A DNA stretch of 64,000 bases from Pirellulales bacterium. GTDB lineage: Bacteria > Planctomycetota > Planctomycetia > Pirellulales > PALSA-1355. The stretch spans positions 2,464,001-2,528,000 of the forward strand of contig CAVTBU010000005.1 in assembly GCA_963733035.1 (NCBI GenBank). The letters run 5' to 3'. The notes beneath the pieces were generated by a model that saw only the letters and a list, made by a program, of their open reading frames with translations, did not search any database and had not been told where the DNA came from. Shown here in pieces: positions 36,909 through 42,419 of this stretch (position 1 is its first letter; every line of letters starts with the position of its first letter). The position numbers and the translations under genes were made by a program.

Positions 36909-37682
36909 TTATTTAGCCTCGCGCACGGGAACTCCCCGCTCTCGCATCACTTGCTTGGTCTGGGCGATCGAAAATTCGCCGTAATGGAAGATGCTGGCCG
37001 CCAGGGCCGCGTCGGCCTTGCCCAGCATAATCGCGTCGGCCAAATGCTCCGGACGACCCGCTCCACCGCTGGCCACAACCGGAATCGTCACCGCGTCGCT
37101 CACCGCCCGGGTCATCTCCAAATCGTAGCCGTTTTTCGTCCCATCGGCGTCCATGCTGGTCAACACGATCTCGCCGGCCCCCAGGCTCTCGACCTCCTTG
37201 GCCCAGGCCACGGCCTCGCGCCCGGTCGGCTTGCGGCCGCCGTGCGTGTGGACTTCCCACACCTCGCGGCCCTCTTTCGTGACGCGCTTGGGATCGATGT
37301 TCACCACGATGCACTGGCTGCCGAAGCGCCGGGCTGCCTGGCGGACAAACTCGGGATTCTCCGGCGCGGCCGTGTTGATCGAAACCTTGTCGCAACCGGC
37401 CAACAGCAGGTCGCGAATGTCTTCCAGCGTGCGAATGCCTCCGCCCACGCAGAGCGGCATGAAGACCATCTCGGCCGTGCGACGGACCACGTCGAGCATG
37501 ATCTCCCGTTCTTCGTGGCTGGCGGTGATGTCCAAAAAGACCAGTTCGTCGGCGCCCTCCTGCTCGTAGCGCGCGGCCACATCTACCGGGTCGCCGGCGT
37601 CGCGCAGGTTGACGAAATTCGTACCTTTGACGACCCGGCCTCGATGAACGTCAAGACATGGAATCACGCGCTTGGCAAGCAT
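36909..37682 (-). CDS. hisF: Imidazole glycerol phosphate synthase cyclase subunit
   Basis: [41 protein letters not shown] and ALAASIFH. Confidence 0.98.
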
Positions 37683-37990
37683 GTGAGAAGTCGACTAGGA
37701 GGGTCATAACCTGTTCCATGGACTCCCTCTAGCAGCACCGTCCCGACGCCGTAAAGGGACTTTCCAGATATCACTTTAAGATCAGCGACCCAGGGGGTCA
37801 ACGGGCCGGAAGGCGCGGACGGGCTGCGCCGCCTCGGCTGCACCTTCGACCACCTATTGAGGGTTTTGCGGTACCTTGATCTTGCGGGTACCTGGACGGG
37901 TTTCTAGACTCCCCCCGCGCAGGAGGCAAAAGATGCTCCGACTGGCGCCTACAAATCCTGTTCGTTTTGCCAATTCCGGAGGCCTGGATC

Positions 37991-38479
37991 ATGGGAAGAT
38001 GCGCATCTTGTCGCAAGTTAATTGTGCTGGGTGGCAAAAAGCAGGGCAATTTGCGGTTCTGTAGCGACGACTGCCACCAACAAGGGTTTCTGATTCCGCT
38101 GGCTCAGCAAGGCGCACCTGAGACCGTGGCCGAGCAGGTCCAGGCCGTTCATCAGCAGGCTTGTCCGATGTGCGGTGGTCCTGGTCCGGTTGATATCTAC
38201 ACGTCGCATTCTGTCGTTTCGATCCTCATCGTGACCTCGTGGAAAAGCACGCCCCAGCTATCGTGCGTATCCTGCGGAACAACTGCGATCTGGAAGGGCA
38301 TTGCCGTCTCGGCGTTTCTGGGCTGGTGGGGCTTTCCCTTCGGCCTGATCATCACGCCCCTGCAATTGCTCAAGGGCGCAAGAGCGCTCAGCAACCGCCC
38401 GGAGCCCGGCCAACCTTCGGTAGCACTTCAAGACGTCGTCCGATCACACATCGGAAGTTCCCTAGCCAGAGCCGCCTAA
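37991..38479 (+). CDS. Cys-rich hypothetical membrane protein
   Basis: GGAGG RBS; four CxxC-like pairs (CASC, FCSDDC, CPMC, CVSC) and LGWWGFPFGLI. Confidence 0.75.
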   Translation: MGRCASCRKLIVLGGKKQGNLRFCSDDCHQQGFLIPLAQQGAPETVAEQVQAVHQQACPMCGGPGPVDIYTSHSVVSILIVTSWKSTPQLSCVSCGTTAIWKGIAVSAFLGWWGFPFGLIITPLQLLKGARALSNRPEPGQPSVALQDVVRSHIGSSLARAA

Positions 38480-38493
38480 CGCGTCCTGCACCA

Positions 38494-38514
38494 AAAAGGT
38501 GCCAGGAACCTTTT
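38494..38514. repeat. REP-like palindrome, family A copy 1
   Basis: AAAAGGT-GCCAGGA-ACCTTTT; overlaps the TAA stop of the thioredoxin gene. Confidence 0.88.
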
Positions 38515-39583
38515 ACTTGTCCAGCAGCTCGGCGAGCTTTTGTCCCAGCCTCTTGCCGCGGCAATGGACCGCAGCGACTTTGCCGTCCTTGCCAATCAGG
38601 ATAAACGCGGGAATGCCTCGAATGCCGTATGCGGCCGCCATCGACGTGCGATTGAAAGGATGACGATCAGCCAGGACAGTCCAGGGTGGGTTCTCCTGGA
38701 CGACAAATTTCCGCAGCTCGCCAAGGTCTTTGTCGATGCTGATGGCGATCACTTCAAATCCGGCGTCGTGGTACTGCTGCCAGTTCGCCAGAATATTGGG
38801 CATCTCTGCGCGACACGGTCCACACCAGGTCGCCCAAAAGTCAATCAGCACCACTTTCCCTTTGAACCGCGATATATCCAGCGGCGTGCCATCGAGCATG
38901 CAGCCCTCGATCCGTAGCGGCTGGCCGACCAGCGATAACAGCGGATCGACCTCGTTTGAGGACCCAGGTTCCGACTCAAAGTCCAGGGTGCGCTCTTCAT
39001 TGCCCAGCATCATGCTGATGGCGAACACCCGCCATTGATCGCCCTCGAAGCGGAGATGCAGTGTGGTCTCGTGTCGCGCACCGTCAGAACGGACCTGGAC
39101 GGGCACCTCGGCTTGCGTCTCGGAGATCTTGGCGCGACCCACTCGAATCGAGCGGATACTTGCATCGGGAGTAGCAAGCTTGACCAGAGGGGAGTCTTCG
39201 TTCTTGGCGATGGCTTGGGCCGCATCCGTCAACAGGGCTCGCGCCAGCTCGCGTTCCTTCGTACGCAGGTCGCCGTAGAATTGCTCAGCGACATCGCGGA
39301 CGACCTTGCTTGCGGAGTCCACGTCGGGTTTCTTTTCATCGGCCAGCTGCTTTTTGACAAACGCCCGATCTGCAGCGCATAGCCGCTTGAGGGGAATCGT
39401 GATTTCCTTCCCATCGGCGAGTCGTAACTGAACGTCGACCGCGGTCGCGGAAATCAGTTCCGCCTCCGTCGTGTGCTTGCCGGTTGAATCGGTCCAGTTG
39501 CGGATTTCGCCCGCGGCCTGTCCGCATAGGTTAAATAGGACAATCCCGAGGGCGACTGTTGACGAGCAAATTCTGGTGTACAT
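38513..39583 (-). CDS. Exported TlpA-family thioredoxin with N-terminal SHD1 domain
   Basis: Signal peptide, RNWTDSTGKHTTEAEL...IPLKRLCAADR (SHD1) and KGKVVLIDFWATWCGPCRAE. Confidence 0.9.
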   Translation of the reverse strand: MYTRICSSTVALGIVLFNLCGQAAGEIRNWTDSTGKHTTEAELISATAVDVQLRLADGKEITIPLKRLCAADRAFVKKQLADEKKPDVDSASKVVRDVAEQFYGDLRTKERELARALLTDAAQAIAKNEDSPLVKLATPDASIRSIRVGRAKISETQAEVPVQVRSDGARHETTLHLRFEGDQWRVFAISMMLGNEERTLDFESEPGSSNEVDPLLSLVGQPLRIEGCMLDGTPLDISRFKGKVVLIDFWATWCGPCRAEMPNILANWQQYHDAGFEVIAISIDKDLGELRKFVVQENPPWTVLADRHPFNRTSMAAAYGIRGIPAFILIGKDGKVAAVHCRGKRLGQKLAELLDK

Positions 39584-39663
39584 TGCCGCGCTCCGACGAC
39601 GACGAGCGAATAGCCGCACGTTCCAGGATGTCAGCATACTGTGGTCAAGACGCCGAGTCTCAA

Positions 39664-40371
39664 TTATTCGCGCCGGGTCGCGAAAATGGTGCCAGGAACC
39701 TTTTTGATTTTCTTGGGACGGCCACGCGGGCGGAGGGTGTTCTGGAGGCCAAGGGTGATTGCGGTGCATTCGCTCCAATGGGCGCTGCCCAACGGATTTC
39801 CTCGCCGAATACTTCGCCCGATTTGCGCGACTTCGGCCTCGGTTTGCGGTGTGTTTACGAGGTCAATCCAATCGCGCGGTCGGGGGATTGGCCACGTCGA
39901 GAGAAGTGCGTCGGCACCGGACTCGTTTAGCCTTCGATACATGCTGCCCCATCGCCACTTTTCGGCGCGATCCACCAAACCGGCCCGCAGCGCATTTCGC
40001 TCGACATAGCGTGTCACACGGTAGAAATGGTCGTCCTCCTCGACCGGGAAGGATTTGAATCGGCCCTGATAGAGATGTCCCGTTCCGCTCGACTGCCGGA
40101 ATGCATGCCAGCGCTGGGCGTGCGTCAAGCTAAGCCAACCCACGAACCGCGAAAGTTCGCCGTCTTCTCGCGGCCAAACCACGAGGTGCCAATGGTTGGG
40201 CATAAGACAATAGGCCAACAGCCGCGTATCCGTGCGCTCGACGGCAGCTTCCAATATCTTTTCAAATGCCCCATAGTCGCCGTCTTCAGCAAAGATCGGC
40301 ATGCGCGCATTGCCACGATTGAGCACATGGTAAACGTAGCCACCAACAGCAGCACGATGCGGTCGTCCCAT
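39664..40371 (-). mobile_element. REP-associated tyrosine (HUH/Y1) transposase, RAYT
   Basis: YHVLNRGN, AYCLMPNHWHL (HUH), GHLYQGRFKSFPV, RYVERNALRAGLV...WRWGS and C-terminal LRPRGRPKK. Flanked by inverted palindromes. Confidence 0.92.
39683..39704. repeat. REP-like palindrome, family A copy 2 (inside the RAYT 3' end)
   Basis: AAAATGGTGCCAGGAACCTTTT, same orientation as copy 1. Confidence 0.88.
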
Positions 40372-40379
40372 GCCCGACC

Positions 40380-40408
40380 AGAATAGTCCCAACGGGTGGT
40401 TCGGTCAA
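40380..40408 (-). promoter_or_regulatory. Sigma70-like promoter of the RAYT gene
   Basis: Minus strand TTGACC-N17-TATTCT, with ATG 8 nt after the -10. Confidence 0.65.
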
Positions 40409-42419
40409 CGAAAAAGGTTCCTGGCACCTTTTTCGTCGCGGGCGGATTCGATGACGCGGCGGCAGTCGGGGAGCGACTCTAGAAATAGCCTGCCGTAGGG
40501 CTTGGTTCGCACCCGGGGGTCGAGGATCACGACCATGCCCTCGTCGCGCTGGGTGCGGATGAGCCGGCCGAAACCTTGCTTCAGCTTCAGCACTGCCTCG
40601 GGCAATTGATAGTCGTTAAATGGATTGCCGCCGCGTGCGCGGATTGCCTCCAGCCGCGCTTCGAGCAGGGGCCGGTCGGGCACGCTGAACGGAAGCTTGG
40701 CGATGATTACATTTTGGAGAGCTTCGCCCGGCACGTCGACGCCCTGCCAAAAACTGTCGGTGCCCAGCAGTACGGCCCGCGGATTGGCCCGAAACCGCTC
40801 GACCATTTGCGTCCGCGGCAGTCCGTCGGCCTGGCAATAAAGTCCCAGGTTTTGCGCCGTTAGCCAGGGCGCAAATCGGCCGACACGCGCCGCATCATCT
40901 CGTAGCTGGTGAGCAGCACGAACGCATGCCCGTCGGTGCGGGCCACGTAGCGGCGGATCATCGCCACCACGGCCCGCTCGTAGGCCTCCTTGTCGCCGGT
41001 CGGGTCGGGCATTTCGTCCAGCAGCACCAGTTCCGCCTGCCGCTGATAGTCGAACGGGCTTCCCCAGCGGCGGCTTTCGGTCTGCGTGAGCCCCACGCGC
41101 AACTTGAAGAAATCGAACGAGCCGCTACGACCAACCGAGAGCGTGGCGCTGGTGAGCACCACGGTTTTCACTTTTTCAAACAGTTGCTCGCGGAGCGTCG
41201 GTCCAACATCGAGCGGAGCGGCCGACAGGCCAATTCGCCGGCGTCCCCGGCGGCTACGAGCCGCGTCGATCCAATACACCGCTTCGCTCTGCCGCTGCAA
41301 CCGCCAATCCTCGACCAGTTCCGAAAGCGCCGCCAGGCGCTCGGCCGCGGCCGTGAAGTCGAGCCGTTCTTCCTCGGGCACGCCGTGCGCCAGCGACTTG
41401 AGCCTGCGCGCGAGCGCCGTCAGCGACGGGCTGAGCTTGTTTTCGACGATCTCGGGCTCGCCAACGCGGGTGGTTTGCCGGCCGTGGCGGTCGATCCAAT
41501 CTTCAACGTCGTCGAAGAACTGGTCGGTGCGGAAGCGGCAAGCCTGCACCTCGCGCTGGGCGTCGGTCAGCCTGTGATGCACGAGCAGACCCCGTTGCGT
41601 CCGCTCGTTATAGAGTTTCGACAACACGAACTCGATTTGTCCGCTGGACAGGTTCACGCCCAGGTGATCGCTGGCCACGCCTTCAAGGTTGTGGGCTTCG
41701 TCAAAGACGACGATGTCGTAGTCGGGCAGAATGCTCGCGCCCTGGCGACGCAATGCCAGGTCGCTGAAGAACAGGGCATGATTGACGACCAGCACCTGCG
41801 CGTTCTGCACGCGCCGCCGAGCACGGTAGTAAAAGCACTCTTTATAGGTCGGGCACTGCCGGCCGTGGCAGTTGACGCTGTCGCTTTCCACTTCGTCCCA
41901 CACCTGCGACGGCGGGCGGTGATCCAAATCGGCCAGCGATCCGTCGCTCGTCTCGCGCGACCAATCGACAAGCGACCGCAGGGCGGCAAACTCTTCCTCC
42001 TGGCGATACAAACTGCGGGCTCGCTCGGAGGCCAGCTGCAAGCGGCGAAGACTCAGGTAGTTCTGCCGGCCCTTGACCAGCACAGCGGAAAACTCCAGCG
42101 GAATCACGCTGTTGAGCAGCGGCAGATCGCGGCCTATCAGCTGTTCTTGCAGGCTGATCGTATGCGTGGAAACCACCACGCGGCGCCGCGGCGCTTCGGC
42201 GCCTTGGTCGGGCTCGTCGGCCACGGCCAGGATCGATGGAACCAGGTAGGCAAAACTCTTGCCCACGCCGGTCCCGGCCTCGGCCACCAGGTGGTGCCCC
42301 TCGGAAATGGCGTCCGCCACGGCCTGGGCCATCGACAACTGCTCGGGACGTTGTTCGTAATGTTCCAGCCGGGCGGCAATCCGGCCCGCGGGCCCCAAAA
42401 TATCGGCCGGAGTGAGCAT
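40405..42419 (-). CDS. dinG: DinG/YoaA family ATP-dependent helicase; apparent frameshift near 40867
   Basis: [26 protein letters not shown] and DEAH; the second frame gives [14 protein letters not shown] and QGFGRLIR...LDPR. Confidence 0.9.
40408..40436. repeat. REP-like palindrome, family A copy 3 (inverted relative to copies 1-2)
   Basis: ACGAAAAAGGT-TCCTGGC-ACCTTTTTCGT, 11-bp perfect arms. Confidence 0.9.

Follow-up and report, generated by a model that had tools for sequence, protein, structure and literature searches.

A REP-associated tyrosine transposase between inverted repeats in the dinG-hisF interval of a Pirellulales genome: a probable REPtron adjoining an accessory TlpA-like gene

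The locus described here lies in a 64-kb stretch of DNA (hereafter the window) from the genome of a Pirellulales bacterium, designated G000, which forms with G001, G002 and G003 the genus set used for close comparison. Between the core genes dinG and hisF, the window contains a gene for a repetitive extragenic palindrome (REP)-associated tyrosine transposase (RAYT), three copies of a 21-nt palindrome, and two accessory genes, one of which (SHD1-TlpA, hereafter TlpA) is placed between two of the repeats. Three sets were used for comparison: 41 related genomes for the repeat pattern, 301 genomes of the order for gene searches, and 79 RAYT loci. The RAYT gene and the repeats around it are as follows:

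39664-40371, minus strand: RAYT gene (open frame 39664-40392, ATG at 40371), encoding a Y1/HUH REP-associated tyrosine transposase
38494-38514: REP1, no mismatches, loop GCCAGGA, an extra singleton in direct orientation to REP2
39684-39704: REP2, the 3' REP of the RAYT gene, one mismatch (AAATGGT), loop GCCAGGA, inside the 3' coding end of RAYT
40412-40432: REP3, the 5' REP of the RAYT gene, no mismatches, loop TCCTGGC and therefore inverted, inside the last codons of dinG
40380-40408, minus strand: promoter-like site TTGACC-17-TATTCT, a consensus match only, between the 5' REP, which it adjoins, and the RAYT start codon

The pattern AAAAGGT-N7-ACCTTTT has exactly three matches in the window when up to two mismatches are allowed, against a chance expectation of 0.09 (mean of 100 shuffles, 0/100 of which reached three). 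On the RAYT strand the order is REP, RAYT, REP, TlpA, REP. The copies, their orientations and this order around RAYT and TlpA, which the original prediction had described, were confirmed by pattern search, open reading frame (ORF) listing and Pfam; so was the contact of the third repeat with the end of the TlpA gene, whose TAA stop (38513-38515) overlaps the final two bases of REP1. This repeat is located in the 33-bp gap that separates the stops of two convergent genes. The stem of REP3 extends to 11-13 bp (CGAAAAAGGT...ACCTTTTTCG), with a calculated DNA hairpin energy of -10 to -10.8 kcal/mol; the best DNA fold of REP1, at -7.6 kcal/mol, is an alternative pairing that differs from the stem of 7 bp around a loop of 7 nt, and the mismatched REP2 folds at only -2.3 to -2.5 kcal/mol, no better than shuffled sequences. 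No GTAG or CGTC foot was seen beside this hairpin in the flanks inspected, which consist of A/T runs, and an Rfam scan around the locus returned two sub-threshold chance matches only.

The RAYT product matches PF01797 with an E value of 6e-14 and 52.6 bits (cut-off 23). It carries the HUH motif as NHWHL, the catalytic tyrosine within RYVERNA and a C-terminal domain ending in RPRGRPKK, and these HUH, tyrosine and C-terminal motifs are invariant across nine aligned sequences. The Pfam match, the motifs and the inverted flanking copies bear out the proposal of a Y1/HUH enzyme encoded between cognate inverted REPs. The repeats are also tied closely to the ends of the gene: in G000, G001, G002 and G016 the bases immediately after the 5' REP of RAYT are TTGAC, and in RAYT orthologues the TGA stop is supplied by the REP loop (...EKGS*). 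The G000 frame is 11 codons longer than those of the orthologues (39664-39704), the usual REP-loop TGA having been lost because of a T-to-C variant in the loop and a frame difference.

This arrangement recurs widely. A scan with the RAYT alignment confirmed at least 597 relatives, from which the 79 loci were kept for flank analysis; a scripted search for inverted repeats of at least 13 nt found one flanking the gene in 51/79 loci, belonging to several phyla, and at all 51 the plus copy lies upstream of the ATG (typically by ~55 nt) and the minus copy on or just past the stop. The nearest named relatives come from metagenome-assembled genomes (MAGs) labelled Planctomycetaceae, Pirellulales and Pirellulaceae; all taxon labels of RAYT relatives are bin labels and may be wrong. 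The hairpin AAAAGGTGTCAGGAACCTTTT flanks 54-69% identical RAYTs (loci L065-L143) in MAGs labelled, without verification, Planctomycetota, Nitrospirota, NC10, Betaproteobacteria, Vicinamibacteria and, in one bin, Doudnabacteria, and a near-identical REP with RAYTs in that identity range also occurs under the label Acidobacteriota; sister hairpin variants such as AAAAGGGGTCGGGAGTCTTTT also occur among the RAYT-relative loci. Conservation of one REP across phyla is unusual, and the spread of REP and RAYT together suggests transfer.

The reading favoured here, which we consider quite probable, is that the locus is a REPtron, i.e., a REPIN-RAYT system, that REP1 is a dispersed copy of its repeat, and that TlpA and the small gene next to it are ordinary cargo of the interval. 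According to three reports (PMC3333891; PMC8266576; PMC6006769, corresponding to the preprint 10.1101/279083), the RAYT gene is often bordered by several REP sequences. The REPtrons treated in them (E. coli TnpA-REP with its bacterial interspersed mosaic elements, the Pseudomonas REPIN-RAYT systems, and those of Marinomonas and Stenotrophomonas) resemble the present locus in having a single Y1/HUH gene within inverted palindromic repeats, a repeat scattered over the genome, some copies forming inverted doublets, with extra REPs clustered beside the gene, and a gene that apparently stays at a single locus among relatives and has disappeared from some of them, leaving its REPs behind, the locus itself being variable. 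The present system differs from them in its hairpin, which lacks the GTAG/CGTC foot and has an A/T-rich stem and a 7-nt loop; in its low copy number (~8 here and at most ~47 in relatives); in the overlap of the 3' REP with the RAYT stop and the abutment of the 5' REP on the promoter-like site; and in the recurrence of the REP with RAYT relatives over several phyla and an NCBIfam equivalog score below the cut-off.

The dispersal expected of a REP family is seen in the related genomes. The 17-mer AAGGTGYCAGGAACCTT, with at most one mismatch, is present in 20/41 of them, and a reversed-pattern control gave 0 in every genome; copy numbers are 47 in G002, 32 in G019, 28 in G034, 15 in G020, 8 in G022, 7 in G001 and 6 in G016, and many copies are parts of inverted doublets spaced 25-80 bp apart. 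The repeat is present in each of the six genomes (G002, G034, G020, G022, G001 and G016) in which the top RAYT match reaches 63% identity or more. G000 has a total of ~8 copies, three of which fall within 2 kb at the RAYT gene; those outside the window are the following:

C5:2173633/2173666: doublet
C5:2317633: single copy
C5:559569: single copy
C6:781067: degenerate doublet

For the ~5 other REP loci of this 6.65-Mb genome, the chance that any would fall within 2 kb either side of RAYT is ~0.003, so the proximity of REP1 to the gene is real; it agrees with the published clustering near tnpA, the REPs of Marinomonas REPtrons being concentrated close to their tnpA (PMC8266576). The copy at C5:559569 (L147, 2070-2082) lies in frame (GKVPDTFLP) in a variable, central-loop coding region of a conserved major facilitator superfamily (MFS) transporter gene and is absent from 3/3 genus orthologues, and this REP was therefore inserted alone, without cargo. 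At C5:2317633-2317819 a lone REP stands beside a fragment of the RAYT C terminus (41% identical to residues 162-212), a pair that is the relic of a second REPtron. A further pattern match, at C5:305661, is no REP but a coding look-alike: the peptide it specifies, GAWNL, is also conserved in orthologues without the palindrome.

The position of REP1 raises the question of whether, whatever its origin, it is kept mainly as a 3'-end element of the two convergent genes, as a bidirectional terminator or an mRNA-stabilising hairpin. It fills the inter-stop gap with A-run and T-run arms and could form a hairpin on both strands, and in G002, G003 and G019 as well, REPs of this hairpin family border directly on stop codons. 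A terminator scan, however, called 0/3 of the REP copies, the stem has three G-C pairs only, and the most stable fold of REP1 is the alternative pairing mentioned above; such a role as the main reason for its retention appears highly improbable.

The interval in which the RAYT gene resides is bordered and filled by the following genes:

40405-42419, minus strand: dinG-type helicase gene, core gene, with a REP-encoded tail
38513-39583, minus strand: SHD1-TlpA gene, accessory, with SHD1 and Redoxin/AhpC-TSA/Thioredoxin matches
37991-38479, plus strand: gene for a small Cys-rich, zinc-ribbon-like membrane protein, accessory, convergent with TlpA and outside the REP pair
36909-37682, minus strand: hisF, core gene, right border of the variable interval

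In 7 listed relatives (G005, G006, G007, G008, G010, G030 and G034) hisF starts 590-740 bp past the dinG N-terminal match, a distance that fits the dinG C-terminus only, and all the G000 DNA between the two genes is therefore insertion. This comparison with empty sites, and the patchy distribution of TlpA, uphold the view of dinG-hisF as an insertion hot spot. The TlpA product, with its WCGPC motif, is a predicted secreted thiol:disulfide oxidoreductase-like protein. The small protein has an N-terminal CxxC...CxxC, a second CPxCG and hydrophobic segments, with no Pfam match; its relatives occur in 10/301 genomes of the order and 0/3 of the other genus genomes, the protein being 27-48% identical in 9 other genomes from 7 families of the order. 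GC content at third codon positions (GC3) is 0.63 for RAYT, 0.70 for TlpA and 0.63-0.70 over the three inserted genes, as against 0.75-0.80 for dinG and hisF. Unrelated, REP-free insertions occupy the same interval elsewhere (a gene of ~1040-1075 aa in G009 and G014, and one of 416 aa in G013), and the variability of dinG-hisF is independent of RAYT. A fourth REP was considered in the space from the small gene to hisF but rejected, its best match having 10/21 mismatches, which is background.

Within the genus the interval differs from genome to genome. G001 has dinG, an EamA gene and hisF, its RAYT copy sitting at a different locus; G002 has dinG, EamA, a REP doublet, RAYT (74% identity), a second REP doublet and ~5 kb containing M48-peptidase-like, Spondin_N-like, ECF sigma factor and AhpC/Redoxin genes before hisF; G003 has dinG, EamA and a fused degenerate REP doublet. 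The C-terminal tail of dinG is REP-encoded in all four, by a perfect REP in G000 and by decayed ones in G001-G003 (EEKGVRNLF*, EEKGVKNLF* and EGDGVRSLF*, respectively). Because G000 and G002 share the locus and the REP-encoded dinG tail is present in 4/4 genomes, the residence of RAYT is probably older than the split of the genus.

This last result bears on the possibility that REP-RAYT-REP is an autonomous element of the IS200/IS605 type, recently transposed or horizontally acquired, with TlpA as a mere neighbour. Members of that group, such as IS608 and ISDra2, combine a Y1/HUH enzyme with sub-terminal hairpins that are recognised as single-stranded DNA, direct hairpins bracketing the DNA that is mobilised. 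An autonomous element would be consistent with the near-identical REPs and 54-69% identical RAYTs in MAGs of several phyla, with the 20-30 RAYT matches, mostly fragments, that some relatives carry, with the separate locus of the G001 copy and with the RAYT GC3 below that of the core neighbours. However, the common locus in G000 and G002 and the REP-encoded dinG tail in four genus genomes argue against a recent arrival, any further RAYT copy in G000 is at most 56% identical to this one, the hairpins beside the gene are inverted where those of IS200/IS605 are direct, and the MAG bin labels may be wrong; the possibility is accordingly rated as very slight.

The original prediction had further proposed that the repeats delimit a captured gene, in the manner of an integron cassette. 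In its developed form this model has the RAYT protein cutting at the two direct REPs and moving a REP-gene unit as a single-stranded circle, with integron-like assembly of such units beside the RAYT gene. REP2 and REP1 are in direct orientation, like both ends of IS200/IS605 elements and their passenger-gene derivatives, which share the Y1/HUH enzyme and the direct hairpin pair; TlpA is patchily distributed; the REP edges coincide exactly with stop codons; and on the opposite side of RAYT a single-gene difference, the EamA indel, is likewise bounded by direct REPs. In a study of E. coli TnpA-REP, the enzyme cuts both sides of the REP and yields recombinant products in vitro (PMC3333891). Resemblance to the two classes of mobile system is, however, incomplete. 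Compared with IS200/IS605, the present transposase gene is not enclosed by the direct pair but has inverted hairpins on its own flanks, there is no second copy of the unit, and no conserved target or cleavage tetranucleotide was identified here. An integron (IntI with attC cassettes) is alike in that the recombinase gene adjoins a gene bounded by palindromes resembling folded single-strand sites, but its enzyme is a tyrosine recombinase and not an HUH protein, and the present locus lacks both an attI-like site and an array, no cassette recurs with its site elsewhere, and the neighbouring accessory gene lies outside the repeats.

This part of the prediction did not pass any of the tests that were run on it. 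Homology between G000 and G001/G002 ends at 40411-40417, at REP3, and at 37683-37689, at the hisF start, with RAYT homology covering 39705-40434; the G000-specific DNA is thus 37690-39704, from REP2 to hisF, and contains both TlpA and the small gene. This block extends past REP1 to hisF, and its second accessory gene lies outside the REP pair. No closing REP was found after the ~5 kb of alternative genes in G002. Full-length TlpA orthologues occur in 7/301 genomes of the order (G000, G001 and five genomes of two other families), and a REP or comparable palindrome was found at the ends of 0/6 of the other orthologues within flanks of ~1.5 kb. In G001 the gene is on another contig, homologues of its neighbours there being scattered over three G000 contigs; G000 has no second TlpA copy, only thioredoxin-domain paralogues at no more than 47% identity, and a related-locus search with TlpA alone gave 42 pattern matches of which none was confirmed. 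The refuting condition named in the original prediction, a lack of association between repeat copies and accessory-gene boundaries, also turned out against capture. The genes tested at true REP copies elsewhere in G000 were those for a methyltransferase (whose stop abuts a doublet), a 3-keto-disaccharide hydrolase and the MFS transporter, and the fourth was the gene of a cytochrome-c-domain protein that holds the C5:305661 look-alike; 4/4 have 68-78% identical orthologues in all three genus relatives, and mostly also in two other genera, so that REP copies are not tied to accessory-gene boundaries.

The wider set of RAYT loci was equally negative for arrays, none being found among the 51 REP-flanked loci. 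At 13/51 loci the 5-kb flanks contain an additional REP copy separated from the canonical pair by 150 bp or more, and at 4 of these 13 it is a lone copy direct to the 3' REP, as in G000. The content between the copies is a RAYT 3' fragment at L065, nothing coding at L089, a 137-aa ORF of no family at L086, and a class II fructose-bisphosphate aldolase with a 166-aa ORF at L118, there between the RAYT REP and the extra REP. Other REP-bracketed content comprises a CMAS-type methyltransferase with a fatty-acid desaturase (L103), a tetratricopeptide repeat (TPR) protein (G019/L050), a second RAYT (L068) and EamA (G002), and the presence of housekeeping genes between REPs speaks against capture. 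Among the papers listed by loosely worded literature searches on RAYTs with gene capture and on RAYTs in Planctomycetes, none was seen to propose RAYT-mediated gene capture. The evidence for capture at this locus is negative, and TlpA is accessory cargo of a variable interval and not a demonstrated cassette. The capture model is judged very improbable; that it keeps some probability is due to the direct REPs, which bracket differences of a single gene to either side of RAYT.

A different role for the repeats emerges from the comparison within the genus. EamA, present in G001-G003 and absent from G000, has direct REPs at both of its edges. Between G002 and G003, which share ~94% nucleotide identity, homology breaks exactly at REPs: it covers dinG and EamA as far as the REP at G002:C211:13249-13265 and resumes at ~14035 at the 3' REP, and the 770 bp of G002 that contain RAYT are missing from those stretches of G003 that were compared. 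In G003 the sequences that flank RAYT in G002 are separated by 19.7 kb and oppositely oriented, and each stops at a REP (C8:44255 and 63976, against G002:C211:13249-14038). The sequences on the far side of both G003 REPs are adjacent in G002, with 51 bp between them that form the REP doublet C145:3488-3530, and are adjacent and uninterrupted in G001 and G000. From this adjacency in G002, G001 and G000 it follows that the G003 inversion is derived, with both breakpoints in REPs, and was accompanied by loss of RAYT. REPs of this family thus mark structural-variation breakpoints in the genus, and repeat-mediated shuffling is real. REP-mediated rearrangements are already known in enterobacteria. 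The mechanism behind the breakpoints may be homologous or slippage recombination, or RAYT catalysis. Smaller rearrangements that fit a breakpoint role of the REPs, tandem partial duplications with REPs as their bounds, were noted at other RAYT loci: in G016 (L045, 5842-5990) the repeated stretch covers the REP, the promoter-like sequence and the opening codons of RAYT, and in G022 (L047, 6168-6409) the RAYT 3' end and the REP are duplicated. Soil-metagenome contigs from three runs of one study were short, low-depth pieces, none of which bridged any REP, and no joint at a REP was seen in them.

A bolder proposal is that RAYT proteins of this family act not on single hairpins only but also on direct-REP pairs, excising, inverting or inserting gene-sized segments beside themselves, EamA, TlpA and the 19.7-kb inversion being the examples. 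We regard this as a very unlikely extension; if true, REPtrons would be local engines of change in gene order and gene content, a single-strand HUH counterpart of site-specific cassette shuffling.

The favoured interpretation, that of a REPtron, can be put as a sequence of events. The domesticated Y1/HUH gene, placed between its cognate 21-nt REP hairpins, which are inverted relative to each other, would encode an enzyme that, by analogy with characterised RAYTs (TnpA-REP), binds the hairpin in single-stranded DNA, nicks beside it through a covalent 5'-phosphotyrosine link and then rejoins the strands. Such cutting and rejoining may spread short REPs as singlets and inverted doublets, as described for related enzymes, with spread near the RAYT gene favoured. 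REP1 would have inserted into, or persisted in, the one neutral site of the vicinity, the gap between the convergent stops, and the repeats, once present, would serve as breakpoints for deletions and inversions. TlpA, enclosed by direct REPs, is more likely poised for loss than captured.

Several points weigh against this interpretation. The sole NCBIfam match of the RAYT product is NF047646 (REP_Tyr_transpos), at 62.4 bits and under the 80-bit cut-off, which marks it as a distant subfamily without contradicting the fold, and a search of solved structures by its sequence gave 0 matches at E 0.01. Activity on a hairpin without GTAG would hold by analogy with the characterised enzymes. With ~8 copies in G000, statistics on its own repeats are anecdotal, and the proximity of REP1 could reflect something besides local hopping. 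The genus tree, (G000,(G001,(G002,G003))) with 100% support, is built from two genes only. Direct REPs around single RAYT-adjacent genes recur (TlpA in G000, EamA in G002, TPR in G019 and the aldolase at L118), a pattern that the capture model also predicts.

As a probable REPtron the locus is a clear-cut case from Planctomycetota, for which descriptions of such systems are scarce. It is useful for RAYT studies in its GTAG-less hairpin, in the overlap of the repeats with a promoter-like site and a stop codon, and in the conservation of the hairpin with its enzyme across phyla. The near-isogenic pair G002/G003 provides a natural case of RAYT loss and inversion with both breakpoints in REP doublets and, if RAYT catalysis underlies such events, they bear on what domesticated RAYTs do for their hosts.

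Some minor observations concern the surrounding genes and the other Y1 enzymes of G000. The dinG gene is split into frames of 519 and 133 aa, with one base missing in a C-run at 40865-40870 (near 40867-40869): G000 reads ...ADLRPG* and continues in the next frame, whereas G002 reads ADLTPWLAEKNLGLYCQ in one frame; from the sequence, this frameshift looks like a homopolymer assembly error and not a pseudogene. The cytochrome-c-domain gene at C5:304029-307657 (L146, 30-1865 and 1993-3657) is similarly divided in G000, as two ORFs of 611 and 554 aa versus one frame of ~1165-1283 aa in relatives, and may be another frameshift. Three Y1_Tnp paralogues in G000 (C5:2308871-2309624, C6:844063-844863 and C5:1911701-1912420) each have a different flanking inverted repeat, in line with one REP type per Y1 paralogue in this genome; the repeat of one of them starts with GTAG (GTAGGTCAGGCCCTGGCCTGAC...), the classical REP foot.

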